Shown: piece by piece, positions 2,671 through 64,000 of the stretch
How the letters are laid out: each line of letters opens with the position of its first letter
How positions within the stretch are numbered: position 1 is the first letter of the stretch
DNA from: a phage
DNA: 64,000 nt
Reading direction: 5' to 3' (one strand)
Assembly (NCBI GenBank): GCA_026188615.1
Contig: GCA_026188615.1_4525.1
Notes under the pieces: model-generated
Told to the model about the DNA's origin: nothing
What the model saw: the letters and a program-made list of their open reading frames with translations, nothing else
The model's database searches: none
Translations under genes and position numbers: made by a program

Positions 2671-3339
2671 TTATTTTAATGTTACGAAAGAAGAATTACG
2701 AGTTTCACGAATTAGAACTGATCCATCGCGATTAATATAATAAATTAAGCTAAATAATGTTTGGTGAGCAGAAGCATGCACAAAACTAGTTGGGCGAGAT
2801 TTCCAATCTGGGGTTTCGGCTATCCATTGATAAATCCACCAAGGAACAGTAACATATCCTGGGCCTTTGCCTAATTTAATGAGTGTAGGACTAAAATTTT
2901 CAGGCAGAACAAATTTTACTTCTTTATTTACCTCTGGTTCAGGCTCTTTTTCGGATTCAACAATCTGAGTAATTGCTTCTTCGAATTTATCATGGTCGAA
3001 TTCTTTTTCTTGTTCGACAACTTCTAATACTTCAACTTGTTCTGTTGGAGAATCAAACAACAGAATAGCTTCTTCTTTAACTTCTTCGTTGGTGAAATTA
3101 ACACCGTCCACATCATCTGCGGCAGTAATTAAATCGGTGATAGATAATCCATCAGTTTCAGGTAATGGTTCATCAGCCAGTGCGTTAAGAGCTTCTTCGA
3201 TATCAATAACAATATTATCGAATGATTTTGTTTTCTTAACACTAATGCCAAATTGTTCCGCATATTCAAACAGTTTAGCTTTGGCTTCCTTTTTATCAGA
3301 AAGAGCACGTAACTCTTCAATATAGTCTTTATCGATCAT
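2671..3339 (-). CDS. inh: Acidic protein, 222 aa; positional equivalent of T4 inh (prohead protease inhibitor)
   Basis: Position between hoc and uvsW, size and acidic composition match T4 Inh; sequence identity not verified. Confidence 0.45.
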   Translation of the reverse strand: MIDKDYIEELRALSDKKEAKAKLFEYAEQFGISVKKTKSFDNIVIDIEEALNALADEPLPETDGLSITDLITAADDVDGVNFTNEEVKEEAILLFDSPTEQVEVLEVVEQEKEFDHDKFEEAITQIVESEKEPEPEVNKEVKFVLPENFSPTLIKLGKGPGYVTVPWWIYQWIAETPDWKSRPTSFVHASAHQTLFSLIYYINRDGSVLIRETRNSSFVTLK

Positions 3340-3352
3340 AGTATTTCCTCAT

Positions 3353-3360
3353 TATAAATA
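3353..3360 (+). promoter_or_regulatory. Late promoter TATAAATA upstream of uvsW
   Basis: Exact TATAAATA approx. 30 nt upstream of the uvsW ATG. Confidence 0.55.
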
Positions 3361-3389
3361 TAACTATATTTATTACATGGTAATTTGAC

Positions 3390-4904
3390 ATGACTGACAT
3401 TAAAGTACATTTTCATGATTTTAGTCACGTTCGCATTGAATGCGACGAAAGTACGTTTTACGAACTTCGTGACTTTTTTAGCTTTGAAGCTGACGGGTAT
3501 AAATTTAACCCAAAATATCGCTATGGGCAATGGGATGGTAGAATTCGACTTTTAGATTACAATCGTTTGTTACCATATGGACTTGTAGGACAAATAAAAA
3601 AGTTCTGTAACAATATGAGTTATTCTGTATGGATTGACCCTAAAATCTTTGAGACTGAAGACCTTACCAGGGAAGATTTTGACGCATGGCTTTCTAAACA
3701 AGAAATTTATTCTGGCAACGCCAAAATTGAACCACATTGGTATCAAAAAGATGCAGTATATGAAGGACTAGTTAATCGTCGTCGAATTTTAAACCTTCCA
3801 ACATCAGCAGGTAAATCACTAATCCAAGCACTTTTAGCTCGGTATTATCTAGAGAACTATGAAGGTAAAATTCTCATTATCGTCCCTACAACAGCATTGA
3901 CAACCCAGATGGCTAATGATTTTGTTGATTATCGCTTGTTTAGTCATTCGATGATTAAGAAAATTGGCGGTGGTGCTGATAAAGCGGACAAATCTAAAAA
4001 CGACGCTCCAATTATTGTTGGCACATGGCAAACGGTAGTTAAGCAGCCTAAAGAATGGTTCTCTCAGTTCGGTATGATGATGAACGATGAATGTCACTTA
4101 GCAACAGGCAAAAGTATTTCTTCAATCATCTCAGGATTAAATAATTGCATGTTTAAATTCGGTTTATCTGGCTCATTAAGAGACGGAAAAGCCAATGTAA
4201 TGCAGTACGTAGGCATGTTCGGCGAAATCTTCCGTCCTGTTAGCACGTCTAAATTAATGGAAGACGGACAGGTAACTGAGCTTAAGATTAATAGTATTTT
4301 CCTTCGTTATCCGGACGAATTCACCGTTAAATTAAAAGGTAAAACATACCAAGAAGAAGTTAAAATTATTACCGGACTAAAACGTCGTACAAAGTGGATT
4401 GCTCAACTTTCGGTCAAATTGGCTAAGAAAGACGAGAACGCCTTTGTAATGTTTAAACACGTTACACACGGTAAAGAAATATTTGAAGCTATTAAAGAGC
4501 TTGGATACGAAAAAGTTTATTACGTATCAGGTGAAGTTGATACTGAAACACGTAACGCGCTTAAAGTCATGGCAGAAAATGGTAAAGGCATTATTATTGT
4601 CGCATCATATGGAGTATTCTCTACTGGTATTTCAGTCAAGAATCTTCATCATGTTATTTTTGCCCATGGTGTTAAATCAAAAATTATCGTACTTCAAACA
4701 GTAGGTCGTGTGCTTCGTAAGCACGGTTCTAAAGCTGTTGCTACAGTTTGGGATCTCATCGATGACGCAGGTGTAAAACCTAAATCATTAAATACTAAAA
4801 AGAAGTATACTCATCTTAATTACTTGTTAAAACACGGTATTGATCGTATCCAGCGTTACGCTGATGAGAAATTTAACTATGTAATGAAAACAATTAATTT
4901 ATAA
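3390..4904 (+). CDS. uvsW: UvsW, SF2 RNA-DNA/DNA helicase
   Basis: 504 aa; Walker A (LPTSAGKS), DExH (MNDECH) and further helicase motifs; near-colinear with T4 UvsW. Confidence 0.9.
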   Translation: MTDIKVHFHDFSHVRIECDESTFYELRDFFSFEADGYKFNPKYRYGQWDGRIRLLDYNRLLPYGLVGQIKKFCNNMSYSVWIDPKIFETEDLTREDFDAWLSKQEIYSGNAKIEPHWYQKDAVYEGLVNRRRILNLPTSAGKSLIQALLARYYLENYEGKILIIVPTTALTTQMANDFVDYRLFSHSMIKKIGGGADKADKSKNDAPIIVGTWQTVVKQPKEWFSQFGMMMNDECHLATGKSISSIISGLNNCMFKFGLSGSLRDGKANVMQYVGMFGEIFRPVSTSKLMEDGQVTELKINSIFLRYPDEFTVKLKGKTYQEEVKIITGLKRRTKWIAQLSVKLAKKDENAFVMFKHVTHGKEIFEAIKELGYEKVYYVSGEVDTETRNALKVMAENGKGIIIVASYGVFSTGISVKNLHHVIFAHGVKSKIIVLQTVGRVLRKHGSKAVATVWDLIDDAGVKPKSLNTKKKYTHLNYLLKHGIDRIQRYADEKFNYVMKTINL

Positions 4905-4918
4905 GGGCTTCGGCCCTT
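4903..4918 (+). other. Intercistronic hairpin aagggc-UUCG-gccctt between uvsW and uvsW.1
   Basis: 6-bp stem with UUCG tetraloop; no downstream U-tract, so more likely a stability or processing element than a terminator. Confidence 0.35.
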
Positions 4919-4929
4919 AGGAGATAAAA

Positions 4930-5163
4930 ATGGTACTTGAATTTAAACAATTTTTATACGAAGCATCTATTGACGAATTCATGGGTAAAATTGCTAGTTG
5001 TCATACCTTAGAAGGGCTTGAAGAATTGGAAGCTTATTATAAGAAACGTATAAAAGAAACGGAATTAAAAGATACAGATGATATTTCTGTCAGGGATGCC
5101 TTAGCAGGTAAGCGTGCCGAACTTGAAGGCGATGAGGATGAGGATGCGGAAGAAGACTTCTAA
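4930..5163 (+). CDS. uvsW.1: UvsW.1-like small acidic protein, 77 aa
   Basis: Position directly after uvsW; Shine-Dalgarno GGAG upstream. Confidence 0.65.
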   Translation: MVLEFKQFLYEASIDEFMGKIASCHTLEGLEELEAYYKKRIKETELKDTDDISVRDALAGKRAELEGDEDEDAEEDF

Positions 5164-5164
5164 T

Positions 5165-5194
5165 TAAAAAAGGCCCGACCTTTTTGGAAGGGCC
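5165..5194 (-). terminator. Candidate terminator for the minus-strand uvsY operon
   Basis: On the minus strand ggccc...gggcc stem followed by TTTTTT; weak 5-bp stem. Confidence 0.35.
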
Positions 5195-5220
5195 AAAAAC
5201 CATAGGCAAAAAAGGTAACA

Positions 5221-5388
5221 CTATAGTAAAAGTTGGGTTTCATTCAATTGCTCTTCTGAACTTTCTGAAACCGGCAATTGTTGGACATAATTATAACAAG
5301 GACCAGGATGTGCTGGACCTTTGTCTGTTTCAACAACCAATGCAGAATCGATTGGAGTTTTACAGACAACACAAATCTTATCTGACAT
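5221..5388 (-). CDS. Small Cys-containing protein, 55 aa (MSDKICVVCKTPIDS...PGPCYNY), possible zinc ribbon
   Basis: Not in the ORF track (under 60 aa); strong Shine-Dalgarno AGGAGG 7 nt upstream of the ATG; position matches T4 uvsY.-2. Confidence 0.4.
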   Translation of the reverse strand: MSDKICVVCKTPIDSALVVETDKGPAHPGPCYNYVQQLPVSESSEEQLNETQLLL

Positions 5389-5420
5389 GATTGCCTCCTA
5401 AGTTGAAATTACATATCTAT

Positions 5421-5645
5421 TTATACCACTCGCATGCACATATCGATACCCATATCTTTTGTATAAAAATACTCGTCGATGTACCCGGCAAACTTCCCTT
5501 TAATATAAAGGACGTCTTCGCCACAAGGATGGTCTGCCAGGATACGAATATCCTGACGACGTAGACGATACTTTTCCATTAAGAATTTAATTTCAGTTTC
5601 AAATTCTTCGTCATTATTAAAGGCATCTTCAATTGAATAACGCAT
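5421..5645 (-). CDS. Hypothetical protein, 74 aa (uvsY.-1 position)
   Basis: ORF in track; start overlaps the uvsY stop. Confidence 0.5.
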   Translation of the reverse strand: MRYSIEDAFNNDEEFETEIKFLMEKYRLRRQDIRILADHPCGEDVLYIKGKFAGYIDEYFYTKDMGIDMCMRVV

Positions 5646-6058
5646 TATTGCCCCGCTTCAAATTCTCGCATATCCTGGATATGTTTAAGTGCAAAACTAC
5701 GAGACTTAACTGCGTCAAGTGCACCACTACAGAACTCAAGTAAAATTCCCCAGTATTGTAAAGTAGTCTCTATTTTAAGCACATCTTTATCTGCAGCCAG
5801 GACAGTTTTCATTTCAGATTTCTCGTATCGGTCCATACTGAATTCATCCCCATCACCTCGTCCCGAGTAGTAGTCTAATCTTGCTTTTAGAGCAGTTTTC
5901 TTCTGAGTCTCTATACGCAACATTTCTTTACGAATAAATGAGTGCTTACGTAGCCATTTGCTGTATAACTTAACATTATTCGCTGTCTCATATTGCAACT
6001 TTGTCGTATCAATAGCTAAGTCTGCGTCTAACTCTTCCTGTAAATCTTCCAGCTTCAT
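5645..6058 (-). CDS. uvsY: UvsY recombination mediator, 137 aa
   Basis: The track ORF starts at 6139, but the conserved protein begins MKLEDLQEEL at ATG 6058; KARLDYYSGRGDGDEFSMDRYEKSEMK is the UvsY signature; the upstream part of the track ORF overlaps gene 25. Confidence 0.85.
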   Translation of the reverse strand: MKLEDLQEELDADLAIDTTKLQYETANNVKLYSKWLRKHSFIRKEMLRIETQKKTALKARLDYYSGRGDGDEFSMDRYEKSEMKTVLAADKDVLKIETTLQYWGILLEFCSGALDAVKSRSFALKHIQDMREFEAGQ

Positions 6059-58103: not shown

Positions 58104-58724
58104 TTAAAGATGAAGATACCACCCGTTGTAGTTGCTCTTGCGGACGATTTTCTTTAGGTCTTCATGGTCTCCCACGAACTTTATAGAATAAGAGAAGACG
58201 TCAGGTGAGGTTTCTTTGACATCTAATATAATAATGCAATCTGCGACTCGATGATTCAAGAAGGGCCCTATATTGATTCCATTACCACCCGGATAATCAC
58301 CACTGTATCCTGTGGTAACCGAAATCCATTTCGAATCCATCTGATGGGTCTTTACTTCTACGCGTAGACCACAGTACTTAGGATGAGCTAAAACGTCCCA
58401 TGCATACGTGTACGGGTCTTCTACGTCTTCATTACCTTTATTAACATATCCGTCTAGCCAATTTGCTACTACATACTCTGCAAAGACTGCAACCTTACAA
58501 CGTCGAACAACGTCTTCTTTTATTTGACCTGGTTCTTGTTTCAACGAGTACCGAGCAGTATCAGCGATCTTAACCTTCATTTCGCTAGTCAAAAACTCAT
58601 TCGACAGGATAAATGTCGGAAGACTCTTCAGCCTCAACAGTCCCAAGTTCGTCTTTACCATAGATACCTCTAATGTGTAGTTCGCCAAAATAAATGCGGT
58701 CACCTTCTTCAAGATATTCTGCAT
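58104..58724 (-). CDS. Hypothetical protein in the denB-equivalent position; start uncertain (158 to 206 aa)
   Basis: Track ORF overlaps the upstream ORF by 128 nt; an internal start at 58580 (MKVKIADTARY) would remove the overlap but lacks a clear Shine-Dalgarno. Confidence 0.4.
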   Translation of the reverse strand: MQNILKKVTAFILANYTLEVSMVKTNLGLLRLKSLPTFILSNEFLTSEMKVKIADTARYSLKQEPGQIKEDVVRRCKVAVFAEYVVANWLDGYVNKGNEDVEDPYTYAWDVLAHPKYCGLRVEVKTHQMDSKWISVTTGYSGDYPGGNGINIGPFLNHRVADCIIILDVKETSPDVFSYSIKFVGDHEDLKKIVRKSNYNGWYLHL

Positions 58725-58884
58725 CTACCGGCGGAATTTCAATAACAACTTCGTCGCATTCTAACCAGCCGTAGTGTGCATCACCAGGATGTTTTACCAA
58801 TTTAGCGCAATACACTGATTTACATTTATGATGGCCACGAAGATTAGCGATTTTGGATTCTGATACGTCAAATGGATGAATCAT
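58597..58884 (-). CDS. Hypothetical Cys/His-containing protein, 95 aa
   Basis: ORF in track. Confidence 0.4.
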   Translation of the reverse strand: MIHPFDVSESKIANLRGHHKCKSVYCAKLVKHPGDAHYGWLECDEVVIEIPPVDAEYLEEGDRIYFGELHIRGIYGKDELGTVEAEESSDIYPVE

Positions 58885-58925: not shown

Positions 58926-59861
58926 TTATTCTGCAAATAATTCAGTAACGTCTGAAATTACTTCATAACGACATGTACGCATCTTAGCATCACCATAGTC
59001 AACTGGGATGGATACAACATCACGTGGATGAACTTTAACTTTCACAACTTTATCTGAGCTTGAACCAAAGTGGCGAATATAAGATTTAGCACAAACATGT
59101 AGACCGCGAGAACAGGTTTGTGTATCATCATCGTTAACACGAGTACGAGGCATTGAAACAACTTTACCTGGGGAGTTATCAAATGTACCACTATAGCAGT
59201 CTAAATAGTCCTTACGAACTACTTTCCACGCATAGAAATGACCATCTTCAGTGATTTCAATATCGTTTGCAACCAAGAAGTCGAATAAACGTTGTACAGC
59301 TTTTTCGCTTGGGTTTTCTAACAGGTTTTCAAGGAATGGCAGATAGAATTTAAAGTCTTCACCTTTTTCCATAGAATCAATAATACGGTTAACCAGCCCT
59401 GAACGAATCTCTATACCTTGATAAAATAAACTACCACCTTCAATAACAACATTACCGTCAACAAACTTACTAATAGCTTTCTTGATGTTAATAAGTTCGA
59501 CAGCTTTACTAAGGTTTCCTGCGACCAGATTAGCTTTAATTTCTTCAAAATTTGCATGACTTGATGGGGTCGCATTGTATGCTACGCGTCCTTCAATTAT
59601 TGAAATAAATTTAGATGACGCGTTCCATACGATTTCAGGACGGTGTCCGCCGATAATAGGTTCATCATTTTCTGGGACCTGTTCTTCGTCTTCAAATTCA
59701 GCTGCTTTCTCTTCAGCTTTAAAATTCTTAACAATCTTACGAAGAGTATCTGTTGAAATGTCAAAGTAATCGGCAATTTCTTTACGGGTCCATTTGCCTG
59801 ATTCAACCAGGCCGTAAGCTTCTAACTGTTCTTCTTTGGACAAGCATTTGATATTGTACAT
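58926..59861 (-). CDS. rIIB: rIIB
   Basis: 311 aa; near-colinear with T4 rIIB (MYNIKCL...CSRGLHVC.KSYIRHFGSS.D.VVKVKVHPRDVVSIP). Confidence 0.85.
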   Translation of the reverse strand: MYNIKCLSKEEQLEAYGLVESGKWTRKEIADYFDISTDTLRKIVKNFKAEEKAAEFEDEEQVPENDEPIIGGHRPEIVWNASSKFISIIEGRVAYNATPSSHANFEEIKANLVAGNLSKAVELINIKKAISKFVDGNVVIEGGSLFYQGIEIRSGLVNRIIDSMEKGEDFKFYLPFLENLLENPSEKAVQRLFDFLVANDIEITEDGHFYAWKVVRKDYLDCYSGTFDNSPGKVVSMPRTRVNDDDTQTCSRGLHVCAKSYIRHFGSSSDKVVKVKVHPRDVVSIPVDYGDAKMRTCRYEVISDVTELFAE

Positions 59862-59870
59862 AATGTTTCC

Positions 59871-62084
59871 TTATTTGGCCGCTTCCACGGCCTTCATGAA
59901 TTTAACGATTTGAGCGACCTGTTCTTTTGAAAGAGTACCACGTCGTCCCATGTATTCTGACACAATATGATAATTGATTTCGAATTCAATAACCATTTTA
60001 TCATCATTATCGTAAGCATTATCTTTAAGCTTATCGAAAATTTTAGCACATAATTCTAACTTCTTATTCAGGTCTCTGTTATCAGCACCTGCGAATCGAT
60101 TCCATCCCCAGCGATTATTTACTGTTGAGAGTTTTGCAAAGTCTTTACTGATTTCTTTGTTCTTAGAGCTAAAATACTTACTAAGGAAGTTAAGCTCTTC
60201 ATTACGAGTAATATGGTTTAGATAGGGTTGTGCTCTACGACTTGGTGATACATACTCATCATAATCTACTTTATCGATTAGCGTAATATAGTCATTAATT
60301 GATTTTTCGAACAAGCATTCTACTTCACCAAGTTTACGAACTTTCTTAGCAATCTGTGGGCGAACTACAGTGAACTCTTTAATACCTGATAAATCGGCAA
60401 TACGGGTCAAGAAATTGGAGTCGTAGTTCAACCAACCTTTATCTGCGTCAAGACATTCAGCATTAGAACGATTACGAACTATAACATAACCTTGGATTTC
60501 ATCTGCTTCACTTGCCGGAATAAAGAGATCTTCTGATACCCAAACATCGTTTTCATTCTTAAAGAACCGATGAGCACTTGGGGATTTAGGACGAGGCTGC
60601 GATGAACGTTCTTTAACTTCAATCCATGGTTTAACCAATGCAAGAATTTCAGAGGTCTTATAAAATTTAAGGCTATCACCAGCGAAAATAACCTTTAATC
60701 GTTCCAGAAGTTTCATTGCAACTTCATCTTCCGGGTTAATGAATAATACGCTACTACCCCATCCAGAAGGAACCTTATCAACGAGTGTTGATGCATCAGT
60801 GGAAGTCAAAGCATCGTTCAGAGCACGCATCATTGGTACGCGGCCTTTCACATCGTCAATAACGATATCAATATGCTTACGACTAATACCTAGCAGGCTA
60901 TTAATTGAAATAGTTGCAGACGAGCTTCCGCTTTCACGAATACGACGAAGTCGTGGGTTTGAAACGATATCATATACAACGCCAAGGTTGCACCATTCAG
61001 GTCCCATTTTAAAACGTTTGTACAACTCAGAATAAGTTAGTTGTTCTTTAGAGTATTTCAGTGATTCAATATTAGAACCGGCTTTTTCCATATATTTACG
61101 AGCAGAGTAACCAAGAGAATCGATTTCACGGAATACATGACGTGGATATTCACAATCAATCCATTTCTTAGAATCTTCAGCAAATAATTTTGCATCGATT
61201 TCTGCAACGCGTTTATGGATATTTGCTACTGTACGTTTATCAAATGACAATGCTTCACGAGACGGGGCTACATCTAGTTCACCCATAGGGAATTTAATAT
61301 AAGCTGTAGTGCATCGTGTCATCATCCAGGTTTGTTCTTTAATAACACTTCCGATTGGATATACAATACCACCATAAACAGCCATGATATTACCACGTTC
61401 ACCCCATGGAGCTTCCTTGGCTAAATAAACATCATCGAATTCCGGGAAGTATTTGATATCTTTAACACCGCGAACTTCTGCAATATCACCTAGAGGACGC
61501 ATAACATATGCAATTTCAGATGCGAACTTTTCAAAATCTTCTGGGTTAACCGGTACAACTACTTCAACGCCGGTCCGGTCATCAGGACCCATCTTATCTA
61601 CGAAGGTTGGCTTAATCTGTGGACCAGTGTCATCTTGGTAGATTACGTAACCACGAACTTCGCCATTATGATAAGAAGTAATGTTAAACGTATCGGTATA
61701 TGCTAGTGGAGCTTTAGAGCCGAGTCCGAATCCACCAATGAAATCGTTACTCGATGTTTTAGTTGAAGCAAAATATGAGTTATAGATTCCTGGCTCTTCA
61801 TCATTACCTCGAATGGTGAAATCACTCATACCAGGACCAAAGTCTCGAACTACAAAACGTGGGTCTAAACGACCTGGTGCCTGAACAATAAACTTATCAG
61901 TGCAACCATTAAGAATTTGTCCATCGATACAGTTGGTGATTAATTCACGTACACAAGCCAATTCTTTGTTTGTATAAAGGTCATTAGACAAAATCTTATA
62001 AACTTTGCTATTGCCTTGAATAGTGAATGCTGTGCTCTTACCGCCTGAACCAATAATCGTTTCTTTAGCCGTTTCAATAATCAT
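59871..62084 (-). CDS. rIIA: rIIA
   Basis: 737 aa; N-terminal GHKL-ATPase-like region; size and position as T4 rIIA. Confidence 0.85.
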   Translation of the reverse strand: MIIETAKETIIGSGGKSTAFTIQGNSKVYKILSNDLYTNKELACVRELITNCIDGQILNGCTDKFIVQAPGRLDPRFVVRDFGPGMSDFTIRGNDEEPGIYNSYFASTKTSSNDFIGGFGLGSKAPLAYTDTFNITSYHNGEVRGYVIYQDDTGPQIKPTFVDKMGPDDRTGVEVVVPVNPEDFEKFASEIAYVMRPLGDIAEVRGVKDIKYFPEFDDVYLAKEAPWGERGNIMAVYGGIVYPIGSVIKEQTWMMTRCTTAYIKFPMGELDVAPSREALSFDKRTVANIHKRVAEIDAKLFAEDSKKWIDCEYPRHVFREIDSLGYSARKYMEKAGSNIESLKYSKEQLTYSELYKRFKMGPEWCNLGVVYDIVSNPRLRRIRESGSSSATISINSLLGISRKHIDIVIDDVKGRVPMMRALNDALTSTDASTLVDKVPSGWGSSVLFINPEDEVAMKLLERLKVIFAGDSLKFYKTSEILALVKPWIEVKERSSQPRPKSPSAHRFFKNENDVWVSEDLFIPASEADEIQGYVIVRNRSNAECLDADKGWLNYDSNFLTRIADLSGIKEFTVVRPQIAKKVRKLGEVECLFEKSINDYITLIDKVDYDEYVSPSRRAQPYLNHITRNEELNFLSKYFSSKNKEISKDFAKLSTVNNRWGWNRFAGADNRDLNKKLELCAKIFDKLKDNAYDNDDKMVIEFEINYHIVSEYMGRRGTLSKEQVAQIVKFMKAVEAAK

Positions 62085-62096
62085 ATTTTTCTCTCA

Positions 62097-62297
62097 TCAC
62101 AAGTTACGTTTAAAAATTTCTGCCACTTCGAGAAGTTCTTCTTTAGTAGCTGTATCGGTTTGTATTTTATATCGAATTTCTTTAAAGCGTTCTTTAAAGG
62201 ACTCTGCTGACTCGATATCAAAAAATCTTTGGATAAGCCGGAATTCCCGGAGCACCGCTTTATCAAAAAGTTCCAAGTCCACGTTATATGTTCTCAT
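62097..62297 (-). CDS. Hypothetical protein, 66 aa (rIIA.1 position)
   Basis: ORF in track. Confidence 0.5.
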   Translation of the reverse strand: MRTYNVDLELFDKAVLREFRLIQRFFDIESAESFKERFKEIRYKIQTDTATKEELLEVAEIFKRNL

Positions 62298-62322
62298 AAT
62301 ATTCTCTTCAGTAGATTCCTAG

Positions 62323-62373
62323 GGCACTATTACTAAAGACCATATAATCTATCATCTTATGTGTAATAGTGCC
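62323..62373. repeat. 11-bp perfect inverted repeat (ggcactattac / gtaatagtgcc) with 29-nt loop
   Basis: Seen directly; lies between the glycosyltransferase-like gene and rIIA.1; the loop contains TATAAT on the plus strand. Confidence 0.5.
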
Positions 62374-62389
62374 TCAGGCTATTCAGGAT

Positions 62390-63490
62390 TTACGCTGTGA
62401 AGATTTTATCCCACATCGCAACAACTGCATCTCGGTTATACTTCTTCCATACTGCTTCAGCACGTTTAACTCGAGCTTCGTATGTGTCAGTGAATTCTAA
62501 TACAGCTTTTGTGTAAAGCGCAACTACTTCTTTCTTAGGAGTAGAGGAATCAATTTCTACACGCACAGTATCTGGGTCGTATTCAAATGTCGCATGAGGA
62601 TAATCCTTAAAAACTAACTGAATTACAGGGACACCTTTAGAGATGGCTTCAATAGAACTATTCTCTACCGTACCTGTGTCAGGACACGTATTAATAAGTG
62701 CTTTAGCTGTTTTAAGGCGTTCCATGATTTCACTGTGTGGAGCATCAATAATAACAGGATATTTAGCCGGTGGCACCCATTTGCTTGGACAGTATCCTGC
62801 ACCATTTTCGCCTAGTGCTTTAATCGCTTCAAGAGCAACATCAGTACGACGCATTTTAGTGTCATAACGTTGTGCACTAATAATCAGATCCGTCGCCGGA
62901 AGAACTTCAGGTTTCTCATTCAAACAAATAACCGGATAATCTTCGGCTTCAAACAACGGATTTGCTCGCCAATAATCATAATCAATTTTGTCAGTCAGAC
63001 CTGAAGTCATATAACAATATTTGCGTTCAAATTCACGGAAGGCTTTAGTAGGAGCATAACTCTTACCACCATTCTTATGAATTTGAATAGTCTGGTCCCA
63101 AATTTGAACAATGCCACGAGATACCGGTTCAAATGGTGTTGCCATAAAATTCTTATGAACTTTAGAGAGACCCGCGTCTTTAATTGCCTGAACGGTTAGT
63201 TTGGTCGGTTCCATTGTAACAACGAAATCGTACTCATTAATGCCGGCTAGTTCAACAATCTTACGAGCCATAGTATAACTCATACCTAGACTGAATTTAG
63301 TCAGATGACCAACAGGATGATGATTAACCTTCCAATCACCAAATGTGTCATTATCAAAGCCGATATAATCAATATCAGCGCCGGTGGACACAAGATATTT
63401 CAACACATTTAAATGTACTGCTTCAAGACCACCTTGTACACGGTCAGGATTAAATGGGACTGCACGAGACGGGATAAACATAACTTTCAT
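62390..63490 (-). CDS. GT-B fold glycosyltransferase-like protein, 366 aa
   Basis: N-terminal MKVMFIPS...RVQGGLEAVHLNVLKYLVSTG and C-terminal DTGTVENSSIEAISKGVPVI resemble the GT4-type nucleotide-sugar-binding signatures. Confidence 0.55.
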   Translation of the reverse strand: MKVMFIPSRAVPFNPDRVQGGLEAVHLNVLKYLVSTGADIDYIGFDNDTFGDWKVNHHPVGHLTKFSLGMSYTMARKIVELAGINEYDFVVTMEPTKLTVQAIKDAGLSKVHKNFMATPFEPVSRGIVQIWDQTIQIHKNGGKSYAPTKAFREFERKYCYMTSGLTDKIDYDYWRANPLFEAEDYPVICLNEKPEVLPATDLIISAQRYDTKMRRTDVALEAIKALGENGAGYCPSKWVPPAKYPVIIDAPHSEIMERLKTAKALINTCPDTGTVENSSIEAISKGVPVIQLVFKDYPHATFEYDPDTVRVEIDSSTPKKEVVALYTKAVLEFTDTYEARVKRAEAVWKKYNRDAVVAMWDKIFTA

Positions 63491-63516
63491 AATTAAGCCT
63501 TATTAAAATTAAAATG

Positions 63517-63534
63517 AAGCTCCCGAAGGAGCTT
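63517..63534 (-). terminator. Hairpin aagctcc-UUCG-ggagctt followed by a U-rich run (minus strand)
   Basis: Seen directly; downstream of the homing-endonuclease-like ORF. Confidence 0.45.
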
Positions 63535-64000
63535 AGGACATCCAACACATTTTATAACCTTTGCAGGTTCTGTTAGGATTATTTAATGCTTTCAATATAT
63601 TAGAAGACCCTATATCTAAATACTCCCTTAATTCATAAAGATAGTTAAAATCAATAGTTTCACCTGTTTTTACACTTGTGATTCTTATAGGCCTTCTTTC
63701 ATATTTAGATTTATACAACTCTCTAGTCTTAGCTTTAGTTTCTTCCGACCTAGGAGTGTATGGTTTAAATCCTTTTGTTTTAAATGTTTCCATTCTTGAT
63801 TTAGTTATTTTATCCTGGTGTTCTTTTGTTTTTACAGGTGCTTTTCGCCCATTCTCCCAAGATAACTTGTTGGCCTGTATTATTTTATCTATTGCTTCTT
63901 GCGTATGAGTTTTACCATAAAATGGATTTAATTCGCCTATACGTTGTGAAGCAATATGTGACATTAATTCTCTTGTTGCTTTAGTATGTTTTTTACCTTT
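63533..64000 (-). CDS. Homing-endonuclease-like protein, C-terminal DNA-binding part; N-terminus beyond the window end
   Basis: Frame stays open to position 64000; NUMOD3-like repeats (NPFYGKTHTQEA; GKKHTKATRE); catalytic family (GIY-YIG or HNH) cannot be seen. Confidence 0.5.
   Translation of the reverse strand, partial: KGKKHTKATRELMSHIASQRIGELNPFYGKTHTQEAIDKIIQANKLSWENGRKAPVKTKEHQDKITKSRMETFKTKGFKPYTPRSEETKAKTRELYKSKYERRPIRITSVKTGETIDFNYLYELREYLDIGSSNILKALNNPNRTCKGYKMCWMS

Follow-up and report, generated by a model that had tools for sequence, protein, structure and literature searches.

What the gene beside rIIA.1 encodes, whether it takes the place of a topoisomerase gene, and whether the neighboring homing endonuclease brought it there are questions raised by the end of the window, the whole 64,000-nucleotide stretch of phage DNA that was analyzed. 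A preliminary description had read the gene as a glycosyltransferase that could transfer a sugar to hydroxymethylcytosine DNA. With a probability of roughly 0.8, we consider the 366-aa product to be the Mosigvirus DNA arabinosyltransferase known from RB69 as ORF003c or gp3, which adds the second arabinose, and the endonuclease to be an independent element.

By nucleotide comparison, the window belongs to an RB69-like T-even phage of the genus Mosigvirus, with 95–99% DNA identity in this region to Mosigvirus phages as identified by the taxonomy of the matching records. The 366-aa reading frame lies beside rIIA.1 as described (62390..63490, minus strand, ATG start). It shares its strand with rIIA (59871..62084, a 737-aa open reading frame), rIIA.1 (62097..62297; Pfam T4_RIIA1, E 2.1e-30) and the endonuclease frame (63533..64000), and the series is collinear with rIIA, rIIA.1 and ORF003c of RB69. 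The transferase frame is downstream of rIIA in plus-strand coordinates only; relative to transcription, it lies upstream. Synteny comparison gives the order rIIA, rIIA.1, transferase, gene 39 in both RB69 and HY126.

The window protein is identical to RB69p003 (ORF003c/gp3, NP_861693.1) at 362 of 366 positions (99%), and the two share their length and their site adjoining rIIA.1. They differ by four substitutions and in context: gene 39 is directly adjacent in RB69, whereas the endonuclease lies between in the window. PHROG 8302 matches positions 1–366 of 366 (E 1e-221). The transferase recurs at ≥95% identity in about 155 Escherichia and Shigella phages, and its orthologue in the Mosigvirus NicPhage is 98.9% identical. 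Full-length identity falls to 43% and 41% for gp77 and gp76 of the Acinetobacter phage DLP3, respectively, and gp3-type genes occupy one place per Escherichia phage record and two per Acinetobacter phage record. Pairwise comparison of the window protein with the first-step transferase DLP3 gp79 revealed no similarity.

The GG.E and E...EA.S.G.PVI motifs on which the glycosyltransferase reading had been built are present, as VQGGLEAV at residues 18–25 and VENSSIEAISKGVPVI at residues 275–290. They fall on conserved columns of an 11-member family alignment, in which G20, G21, L22, E276, E281, A282, I283, S284, G286, P288 and V289 are invariant or nearly so. The conserved TGTVENSSIEAISKGVPV is also found; the conserved glutamates E276 and E281 are spaced x4, and the first position of a canonical EX7E is occupied by G273. 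An E-x4-E in place of EX7E would fit an inverting gp3-type enzyme.

To judge from the searches, the family is tiny, isolated and confined to T4-like phages. A word-indexed search recovered five homologue clusters with one sequence and ten with a profile, and an exhaustive HMMER search gave 11 hits among 1.84 billion representatives. A Pfam scan of the protein returned no family at E ≤ 1, including Glycos_transf_1 and Glyco_trans_4, and precomputed Pfam domains were absent from all homologues of the transferase. The word-indexed, profile and exhaustive HMMER searches yielded no sequence bridge to bacterial glycosyltransferase families, and the fold assignment therefore rests on structure.

In the predicted structure, the transferase fold is GT-B/GT4-like. 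The AlphaFold model (pLDDT 90.5) contains two Rossmann-like β/α/β domains with a cleft between them and superposes on PDB 9IQZ/9IR0 at TM 0.96; the other matches are GT-B/GT4 enzymes, the best structural neighbors being retaining GT4 enzymes. Structure prediction and comparison with known structures thus bear out the fold first proposed from the motifs. Both phage transferases, the gp3-type and the gp46:47-type considered below, look most like retaining GT4 enzymes. The chain in the crystal structures 9IQZ (apo) and 9IR0 (UDP-bound), which the PDB released on 2025-07-16, is the glycosyltransferase of phage HY126, about 98% identical to the window protein, and the entry title of 9IR0 indicates that this orthologue binds UDP on its own. 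The HY126 protein carries a few substitutions relative to the window protein, and HY126 is without the endonuclease insertion. We take He et al. (Nat Chem Biol 2026) to be the source of the HY126 structures.

The chemistry of the genus changes the base on which such an enzyme would act. Mosigvirus DNA contains mono- and di-arabinofuranosyl-5-hydroxycytosine rather than the hydroxymethylcytosine assumed at the outset, and its sugar is D-arabinofuranose, ether-linked at C5 of 5-hydroxycytosine (PMC13326640, PMC13390438). RB69 DNA carries β-D-Araf-3-α-D-Araf-5-hydroxy-dC (PMC13326640), and NicPhage, the closest chemically analyzed relative, has 5-ara-dC and 5-ara-ara-dC at a ratio of 1:4. The proposed role in DNA hypermodification, specifically with a second sugar, is the one given in the literature to the 99%-identical RB69 orthologue (PMC6024577, PMC13326640, PMC13390438). 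Papers of 2025–26 assign the second arabinose to the gene "between rIIA and the topoisomerase gene" (PMC13326640, PMC13390438), and gp3 has been termed 'beta-arabinosyltransferase 2', with the step assignment explicitly a proposal (Lee et al. NAR 2026; PMC13326640).

The RB69 cluster for 5hodCMP synthase and UDP-arabinose is found at 95–99% identity in about 155 phages, including HY126 and the endonuclease-bearing relatives phi25-307, phiC120, SQ17 and AV111. In RB69 it lies about 21 kb beyond the point that matches the window end. From these relatives, the genome of the window would be expected to encode 5hodCMP synthase, the UDP-arabinose genes and the first arabinosyltransferase. Orthology and fold were computed in this analysis, as was the occurrence of the pathway among the closest relatives, while UDP binding (by a 98%-identical structure), the modification chemistry and the activity of 41–43%-identical homologues come from the literature or the PDB.

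In the mechanism that we propose, a soluble GT-B (GT4-like) enzyme would bind its UDP-sugar in the cleft between the two Rossmann-like domains. The donor, UDP-D-arabinofuranose, would come from an arabinose gene cluster that the phage itself carries at another place in its genome, near gene 43. The enzyme would act after replication; its substrate would be phage DNA whose cytosines are all replaced by 5-hydroxycytosine bearing one α-D-Araf, this first sugar having presumably been added by a separate transferase, RB69 gp46:47. The gp3-type enzyme would then add the second sugar to give β-D-Araf-(1→3)-α-D-Araf-5-hydroxy-dC, and the bulkier modification would shield phage DNA from restriction and CRISPR nucleases. 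For the window enzyme, the second-step role and its stereochemistry are inferred.

That the enzyme might instead be the first, base-proximal (or only) DNA arabinosyltransferase, placing arabinose directly onto hydroxylated cytosine, is improbable. This reading draws on Thomas et al., who in 2018 named ORF003c 'the' arabinosyltransferase (PMC6024577), and on the literature, our coverage of which was incomplete: we found there neither a direct assay of RB69 gp3 or of the window protein nor one that separates the two steps. However, a second GT-B enzyme of Mosigviruses, RB69 gp46:47, is encoded within the 5hodCMP-synthase/arabinose cluster, and the mono-arabinosylated Shewanella phage Thanatos has the gp46:47-type only (PMC13326640). 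The number of gp3-type paralogues also tracks the extra sugars, with one in di-arabinosylated RB69 and two in tri-arabinosylated DLP3. Furthermore, with UDP-Araf as the donor, DLP3 gp76 and gp77 jointly attach a third arabinose to RB69 DNA in vitro; they act on already arabinosylated DNA and left 5hoC DNA unmodified (PMC13326640). Each of the two is inactive alone (PMC13326640), as would be expected if enzymes of this type worked only in a hetero-complex or as the non-catalytic partner of another transferase. We consider such an arrangement highly improbable here, given that Mosigviruses have a single gp3-type gene, that the glycosyltransferase signature residues are invariant and that the HY126 orthologue, according to its PDB entry title, binds UDP unaided.

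A role outside DNA modification, on a substrate such as the lipopolysaccharide of the host, a lipid carrier or a protein of the phage, is scarcely credible. The top structural neighbors PimA, BshA and WaaG do have lipids, small molecules or polysaccharides as substrates, and one metagenomic homologue carries the source label 'glycosyltransferase involved in cell wall biosynthesis'. Against this, the family is restricted to T4-like phages (11 clusters among 1.84 billion representatives), its members neighbor phage genes such as those for DNA ligase and DsbA, the Acinetobacter phage gene sits within the 5hoC/arabinose cluster, and homologues modify DNA in vitro. A DNA arabinosyltransferase that adds the second arabinose remains our preferred reading.

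The stereochemistry of this second step poses a problem of its own. With an α-linked base-proximal arabinose, a β-linked second arabinose and UDP-Araf as the one donor (PMC13326640), the two transferases must have opposite stereochemical outcomes, yet their resemblance to retaining GT4 enzymes does not account for the stereochemistry of at least one of them. An alternative, which we view as rather unlikely, is that the gp3-type enzyme is an inverting furanosyltransferase built on a GT4-like scaffold.

The regions on either side of the transferase gene contain structured elements. Between its stop codon and the start of rIIA.1 lies an intergenic 11-bp perfect inverted repeat (62323..62373, without strand), reported earlier and confirmed by sequence check, with arms GGCACTATTAC (62323–62333) and GTAATAGTGCC (62363–62373) and a 29-nt spacer. 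The intergenic RNA of the minus strand folds at −28.6 kcal/mol, compared with −15.4 ± 3.0 for shuffles (z = −4.4). The repeat is conserved in relatives; an A>G change in RB69 produces a C·A mismatch in the sense-strand RNA and a weaker stem. At this repeat the relatives are too similar for covariation. A canonical intrinsic terminator is ruled out here, as no T-run or U-tract follows the repeat. In the gap that separates the endonuclease stop codon from the start of the transferase gene, a consensus scan located a terminator-like hairpin (63517..63534, minus strand), which is G+C-rich, has a UUCG loop (AAGCTCCTTCGGGAGCTT) and is followed by a T-rich tail. The identical hairpin occurs in RB69, directly after the gene 39 stop codon. 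An Rfam scan of 62000–64000 gave nothing meaningful (best E 0.24).

The frame at 63533..64000 (minus strand), truncated where the window ends, holds the C-terminal 155 codons of a homing endonuclease gene of the HNH/NUMOD3 (Mob-like) type. Its description as a NUMOD3-bearing, homing-endonuclease-like frame running off the window was accurate: NUMOD3 scores 23.2 bits (E 6.8e-5) against a Pfam cut-off of 20.4, and the frame is open to base 64000, with the N-terminal 110 residues beyond. A 99.8%-identical stretch in phage NRG-P0074 contains the full endonuclease of 265 aa, with two NUMOD3 motifs, a match to PHROG 655 'homing endonuclease' (E 1e-56) and a weak N-terminal HNH match (18.9 bits, below the Pfam cut-off of 21.4). 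The frame has a GC content of 31% versus 37.7% for the window. No gene 60 is visible in the window, which stops within the endonuclease gene. Relatives that are 98–100% identical across the junction reveal the gene 39 side: either the endonuclease is followed by an unsplit gene 39, or gene 39 directly adjoins the transferase. We conclude that this is a homing endonuclease of the probable HNH/NUMOD3 type, free-standing and lodged within the final codons of gene 39, which is unsplit; it is an independent selfish element outside the modification system.

Two suggestions of the preliminary description fail on these observations. The endonuclease does not account for the acquisition of the transferase, which is present in about 155 phages: the endonuclease occurs sporadically at this otherwise conserved site, in 20 of 167 related records, and is missing from the intact junction of RB69 and HY126. 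This distribution, together with an insertion junction that points to later insertion at the 3' end of gene 39, argues against it as a vehicle. Nor does the transferase replace gene 60; gene 39 is unsplit in Mosigviruses, so there is no separate gene 60, and the unsplit gene 39 of the relatives rules out a replacement.

The novelty implied for this gene does not hold either. In 2018, Thomas et al. put ORF003c of RB69 forward as a DNA arabinosyltransferase on the strength of HMM/HHpred similarity to GT-B enzymes (PMC6024577), and orthologues have since been named, modeled, crystallized and placed in a pathway; the window contributes one more near-identical copy. The sole use of the finding is in annotation, where the gene should be entered as an arabinosyltransferase on 5-hydroxycytosine DNA, not as a 'hypothetical protein' and not as acting on hydroxymethylcytosine DNA. 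Worked out recently, the arabinosyl-5-hydroxycytosine pathway serves phages as a counter-defense: the success of Mosigvirus phages when challenged by restriction enzymes, CRISPR and type IV (GmrSD/BrxU) systems depends on it, and these phages find wide use as therapy candidates.

Among known systems, gp76 and gp77 of DLP3 have the same conserved motifs as the window transferase; however, they are tandem paralogues within the arabinose/5hoC cluster of a phage with tri-arabinosylation, whereas the window gene is a single copy adjoining rIIA.1, far from the arabinose cluster, in a genus with di-arabinosylated DNA. The bacterial GT4-type enzymes PimA (2GEJ), BshA (3MBO/6N1X), MshA (3C4Q) and sucrose-phosphate synthase (6KIH) share the two-Rossmann GT-B architecture and the C-terminal nucleotide-binding E..EA.S.G.PV motif at 10–15% identity; the window protein differs in the spacing of its two conserved glutamates, E-x4-E rather than the canonical EX7E. 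The α-glucosyltransferase (1Y6F/1XV5) and β-glucosyltransferase of T4 share only the fold, at 10% identity, and are not sequence relatives. A profile search of PDB sequences found 9IQZ/9IR0 only and no T4 enzyme at E ≤ 10, in keeping with the lack of resemblance noted from the start. The T4 enzymes transfer glucose from UDP-glucose to the hydroxymethyl group of hmC, whereas the donor of the window enzyme would be UDP-Araf and its acceptor most likely the first arabinose on 5-hydroxycytosine. The endonuclease, 30–50% identical to other T-even endonucleases, resembles the Mob type of T4 in its sporadic distribution, low GC content and site adjoining gene 39, and its full-length relative has the same NUMOD3 repeats and probably the same HNH N-terminal domain. 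T4 mobA, in contrast, lies between genes 60 and 39, while the window endonuclease falls within the final codons of a gene 39 that is unsplit.

The 366-aa ORF at 62390..63490 (minus strand) is the orthologue of RB69 ORF003c (gp3, RB69p003), with 362/366 residues identical, and we assign it, with a probability of about 0.8, to the second arabinosyl transfer in the modification of phage DNA. The gene is already known: an arabinosyltransferase function was proposed in 2018, an orthologue of 98% identity was crystallised with UDP (structure released in 2025), and papers of 2025-26 assign to it the second sugar transfer of the arabinosyl-5-hydroxycytosine pathway. The more general statement that it encodes a DNA arabinosyltransferase of this pathway can be made with greater confidence still.

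RB69 DNA contains arabinose, and searches with custom HMMs and HHpred pointed to ORF003c (366 residues) as the candidate arabinosyltransferase; JS09 and Shf125875 have close homologues of it, and Acinetobacter phages have paired homologues (Thomas et al. 2018, PMC6024577). The chemistry has since been revised, with mono- and di-arabinosylated 5-hydroxycytosine (5hoC) fully replacing the cytosines of RB69 (Lee et al., NAR 2026, PMC13326640). The di-form is beta-D-Araf-(1->3)-alpha-D-Araf-5-hydroxy-2'-deoxycytidine (Araf, arabinofuranose), the hydroxyl derives from gp48, a thymidylate-synthase homologue that makes 5hodCMP, and the proposed transferases are gp46:47 for the first arabinose and gp3 as 'beta-arabinosyltransferase 2' (PMC13326640). 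Because the two linkages are anomerically opposite and share one donor, one of the two GT4-like transferases must invert. In the Mosigvirus NicPhage, 5-ara-dC and 5-ara-ara-dC occur at 1:4 (Durham Collection paper, PMC13390438); its protein is 98.9% identical to the window protein. The preliminary description had proposed sugar transfer to hydroxymethylcytosine DNA, which was nearly right: DNA is the probable substrate, and the base is 5-hydroxycytosine according to the literature (PMC13326640).

The fold prediction suggested in that description returned GT-B, and both motifs it had quoted, VQGGLEAV (residues 18-25) and VENSSIEAISKGVPVI (residues 275-290), correspond to alignment columns that are invariant, or almost so, across the family. 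The conserved glutamates show E-x4-E spacing, versus the canonical EX7E. A Pfam scan of the protein matched no model, even at E<=1, and only 9IQZ/9IR0, about 98% identical, matched strongly in a profile search of PDB sequences. These entries, labelled by Foldseek 'phage HY126 glycosyltransferase' and 'phage HY126 glycosyltransferase with UDP' (released 2025-07-16), provide an experimental structure with bound UDP for an essentially identical protein. The other structural neighbours are BshA, tetrahydrobiopterin glucosyltransferase, PimA, MshA and WaaG.

About 155 records of Escherichia and Shigella phages contain the protein at >=95% identity. At the DNA level, 167 phage records, nearly all from Escherichia or Shigella phages, match the 1.7-kb stretch at 90-99% identity (>=95% in all but 17), and those examined belong to Mosigvirus, the RB69-like T-even genus. 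A further 55 records, from Acinetobacter phages, have homologues at about 43% identity, with two copies in each genome; those of phage DLP3 are gp77 (43%) and gp76 (41%), both compared over the full length, and DLP3 gp79, of the first-step type, has no detectable similarity to the window protein. The family is otherwise very small, with 5 to 10 clusters in a collection of 5.8 billion proteins and 11 matches in an exhaustive profile search of 1.84 billion cluster representatives. Distant homologues (34-41% identity) lie on short metagenomic contigs, at 3040-4224 of one from JGI metagenome 3300045321 and at 450-1574 of another, L007. The former has a T4-type DNA ligase and phage DsbA among its neighbours, a T4-like context, while Pfam matched none of the neighbours on L007; the two homologues suggest that gp3-type enzymes occur in additional T4-like phages not yet cultured. 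PHROGs places the protein in family 8302, 'unknown function', and many Mosigvirus records label the whole pathway, transferase included, 'hypothetical protein' or 'dCMP hydroxymethylase'.

The enzyme is predicted to be soluble and of the GT-B type, binding UDP-D-arabinofuranose; after replication it would act on phage DNA, adding the sugar at O3 of the alpha-Araf that 5-hydroxycytosine carries by then. Our analysis established the orthology, the fold and the co-occurrence of the genes in related genomes. The literature or the PDB supplied the evidence for UDP binding, for the chemistry of the DNA and for activity in the 41-43% homologues, and we infer the specific step and whether the enzyme is self-sufficient. 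In vitro, with UDP-Araf as donor, DLP3 gp76 and gp77 put a third arabinose onto RB69 DNA, and neither modified bare 5hoC DNA (PMC13326640), which makes it unlikely that the transferase performs the first step. The same experiments lend some weight to an enzyme active only within a complex, since gp76 and gp77 were inactive individually and active jointly (PMC13326640); we regard this as slightly less probable again. A substrate other than DNA is the least likely alternative, and a very improbable one.

The four genes in 59871..64000 all lie on the minus strand: rIIA (59871..62084), rIIA.1 (62097..62297; Pfam T4_RIIA1, E 2e-30), the transferase gene, and an endonuclease ORF whose stop codon is at 63533. 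The transferase gene adjoins rIIA.1 as initially described; since the genes run right to left, it is transcriptionally upstream of rIIA.1, not downstream. Further along the same strand, a 206-aa ORF (58104..58724) overlaps a 95-aa ORF (58597..58884), and the pair adjoins a 311-aa ORF (58926..59861) that is probably rIIB.

The ORFs reported earlier are present, as is the 11-bp inverted repeat between the transferase gene and rIIA.1, which is perfect (GGCACTATTAC, 62323-62333; GTAATAGTGCC, 62363-62373) and conserved among relatives. The intergenic sense-strand RNA folds at -28.6 kcal/mol, versus -15.4 +/- 3.0 kcal/mol for shuffled sequences (z = -4.4). The repeat has no U-run after it and no Rfam match. 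The sole variant seen in the repeat (62323-62373) is an A>G change in the left arm in RB69 (2453-2503 of the corresponding region), giving a G.T pair on the plus strand and, in the sense RNA (minus strand), an uncompensated C.A mismatch, so that covariation lends the structure no support. Plausibly, the repeat forms a stem-loop that serves to stabilise the 3' end of the transferase mRNA or to direct its processing. Within 62000-64000, a terminator scan picked out one terminator-like site only, a hairpin rich in G+C with a UUCG tetraloop and T-rich tail (63517-63534, minus strand), which lies just upstream of the transferase gene and has the same sequence in RB69. Efficient termination here would oblige the transferase gene to have a promoter of its own within the 42-bp spacer, where a sigma-70 scan found none.

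The endonuclease frame (63533..64000, minus strand) is still open where the window ends, as previously noted, and comprises the C-terminal 155 codons with one NUMOD3 motif. Phage NRG-P0074, which differs at one base in 521 over this stretch, encodes the full 265-aa protein, with an N-terminal HNH motif (under the Pfam cut-off), two NUMOD3 motifs and a match to PHROG 655 'homing endonuclease' (E 1e-56), followed by an unsplit gene 39. The endonuclease occupies this site in only 20 of the 167 related records; 28 records contain close copies (>=95% identity), and more distant relatives (30-50%) occur here and there among T4-like phages. Its segment (63533-64000) has 31% GC, compared with 37.7% for the whole window and 40% for the transferase gene, which fits a mobile gene of recent acquisition. 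Between the transferase start codon and the final codons of the gene upstream (WMS*; 63533-63545, RB69 region 3663-3675), UUCG hairpin included, the window and RB69 sequences are the same; these final codons terminate gene 39 in RB69 and the endonuclease in the window. In endonuclease-bearing phages, gene 39 ends ...DWMLG*, its stop codon overlapping the endonuclease ATG (2190-2260 in one relative's region). The distribution, the scattered relatives, the low GC and this junction together mark a free-standing homing endonuclease that was inserted later, the junction placing the insertion within the very 3' end of gene 39, whose last codons and terminator the endonuclease took over. The suggestion that it could account for the acquisition of the transferase gene is not borne out, since that gene occurs across the whole genus whether the endonuclease is there or not.

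HY126 and RB69 share the gene order rIIA, rIIA.1, transferase, unsplit gene 39. The arabinose cluster is found at 95-99% identity in about 155 phages, and carriers of a gp3 orthologue are about as numerous; the cluster carriers include HY126 and the endonuclease-sharing relatives phi25-307, phiC120, SQ17 and AV111. The RB69 reference record still splits two arabinose-pathway genes, RB69p046/047 and RB69p052/053, each into two ORFs (598-1498 and 4095-5781 of the cluster region), which has been blamed on sequencing errors (PMC13326640). The count of gp3-type genes follows that of the sugars added after the first: RB69, di-arabinosylated, has one such gene and DLP3, tri-arabinosylated, has two. 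In DLP3, both paralogues lie inside one cluster with a thymidylate-synthase homologue, a kinase/pyrophosphorylase and an arabinose-5-phosphate isomerase, whereas in RB69 ORF003c is far from the equivalent cluster (gp45-gp55), which adjoins gene 43 about 21 kb away and falls outside the window.
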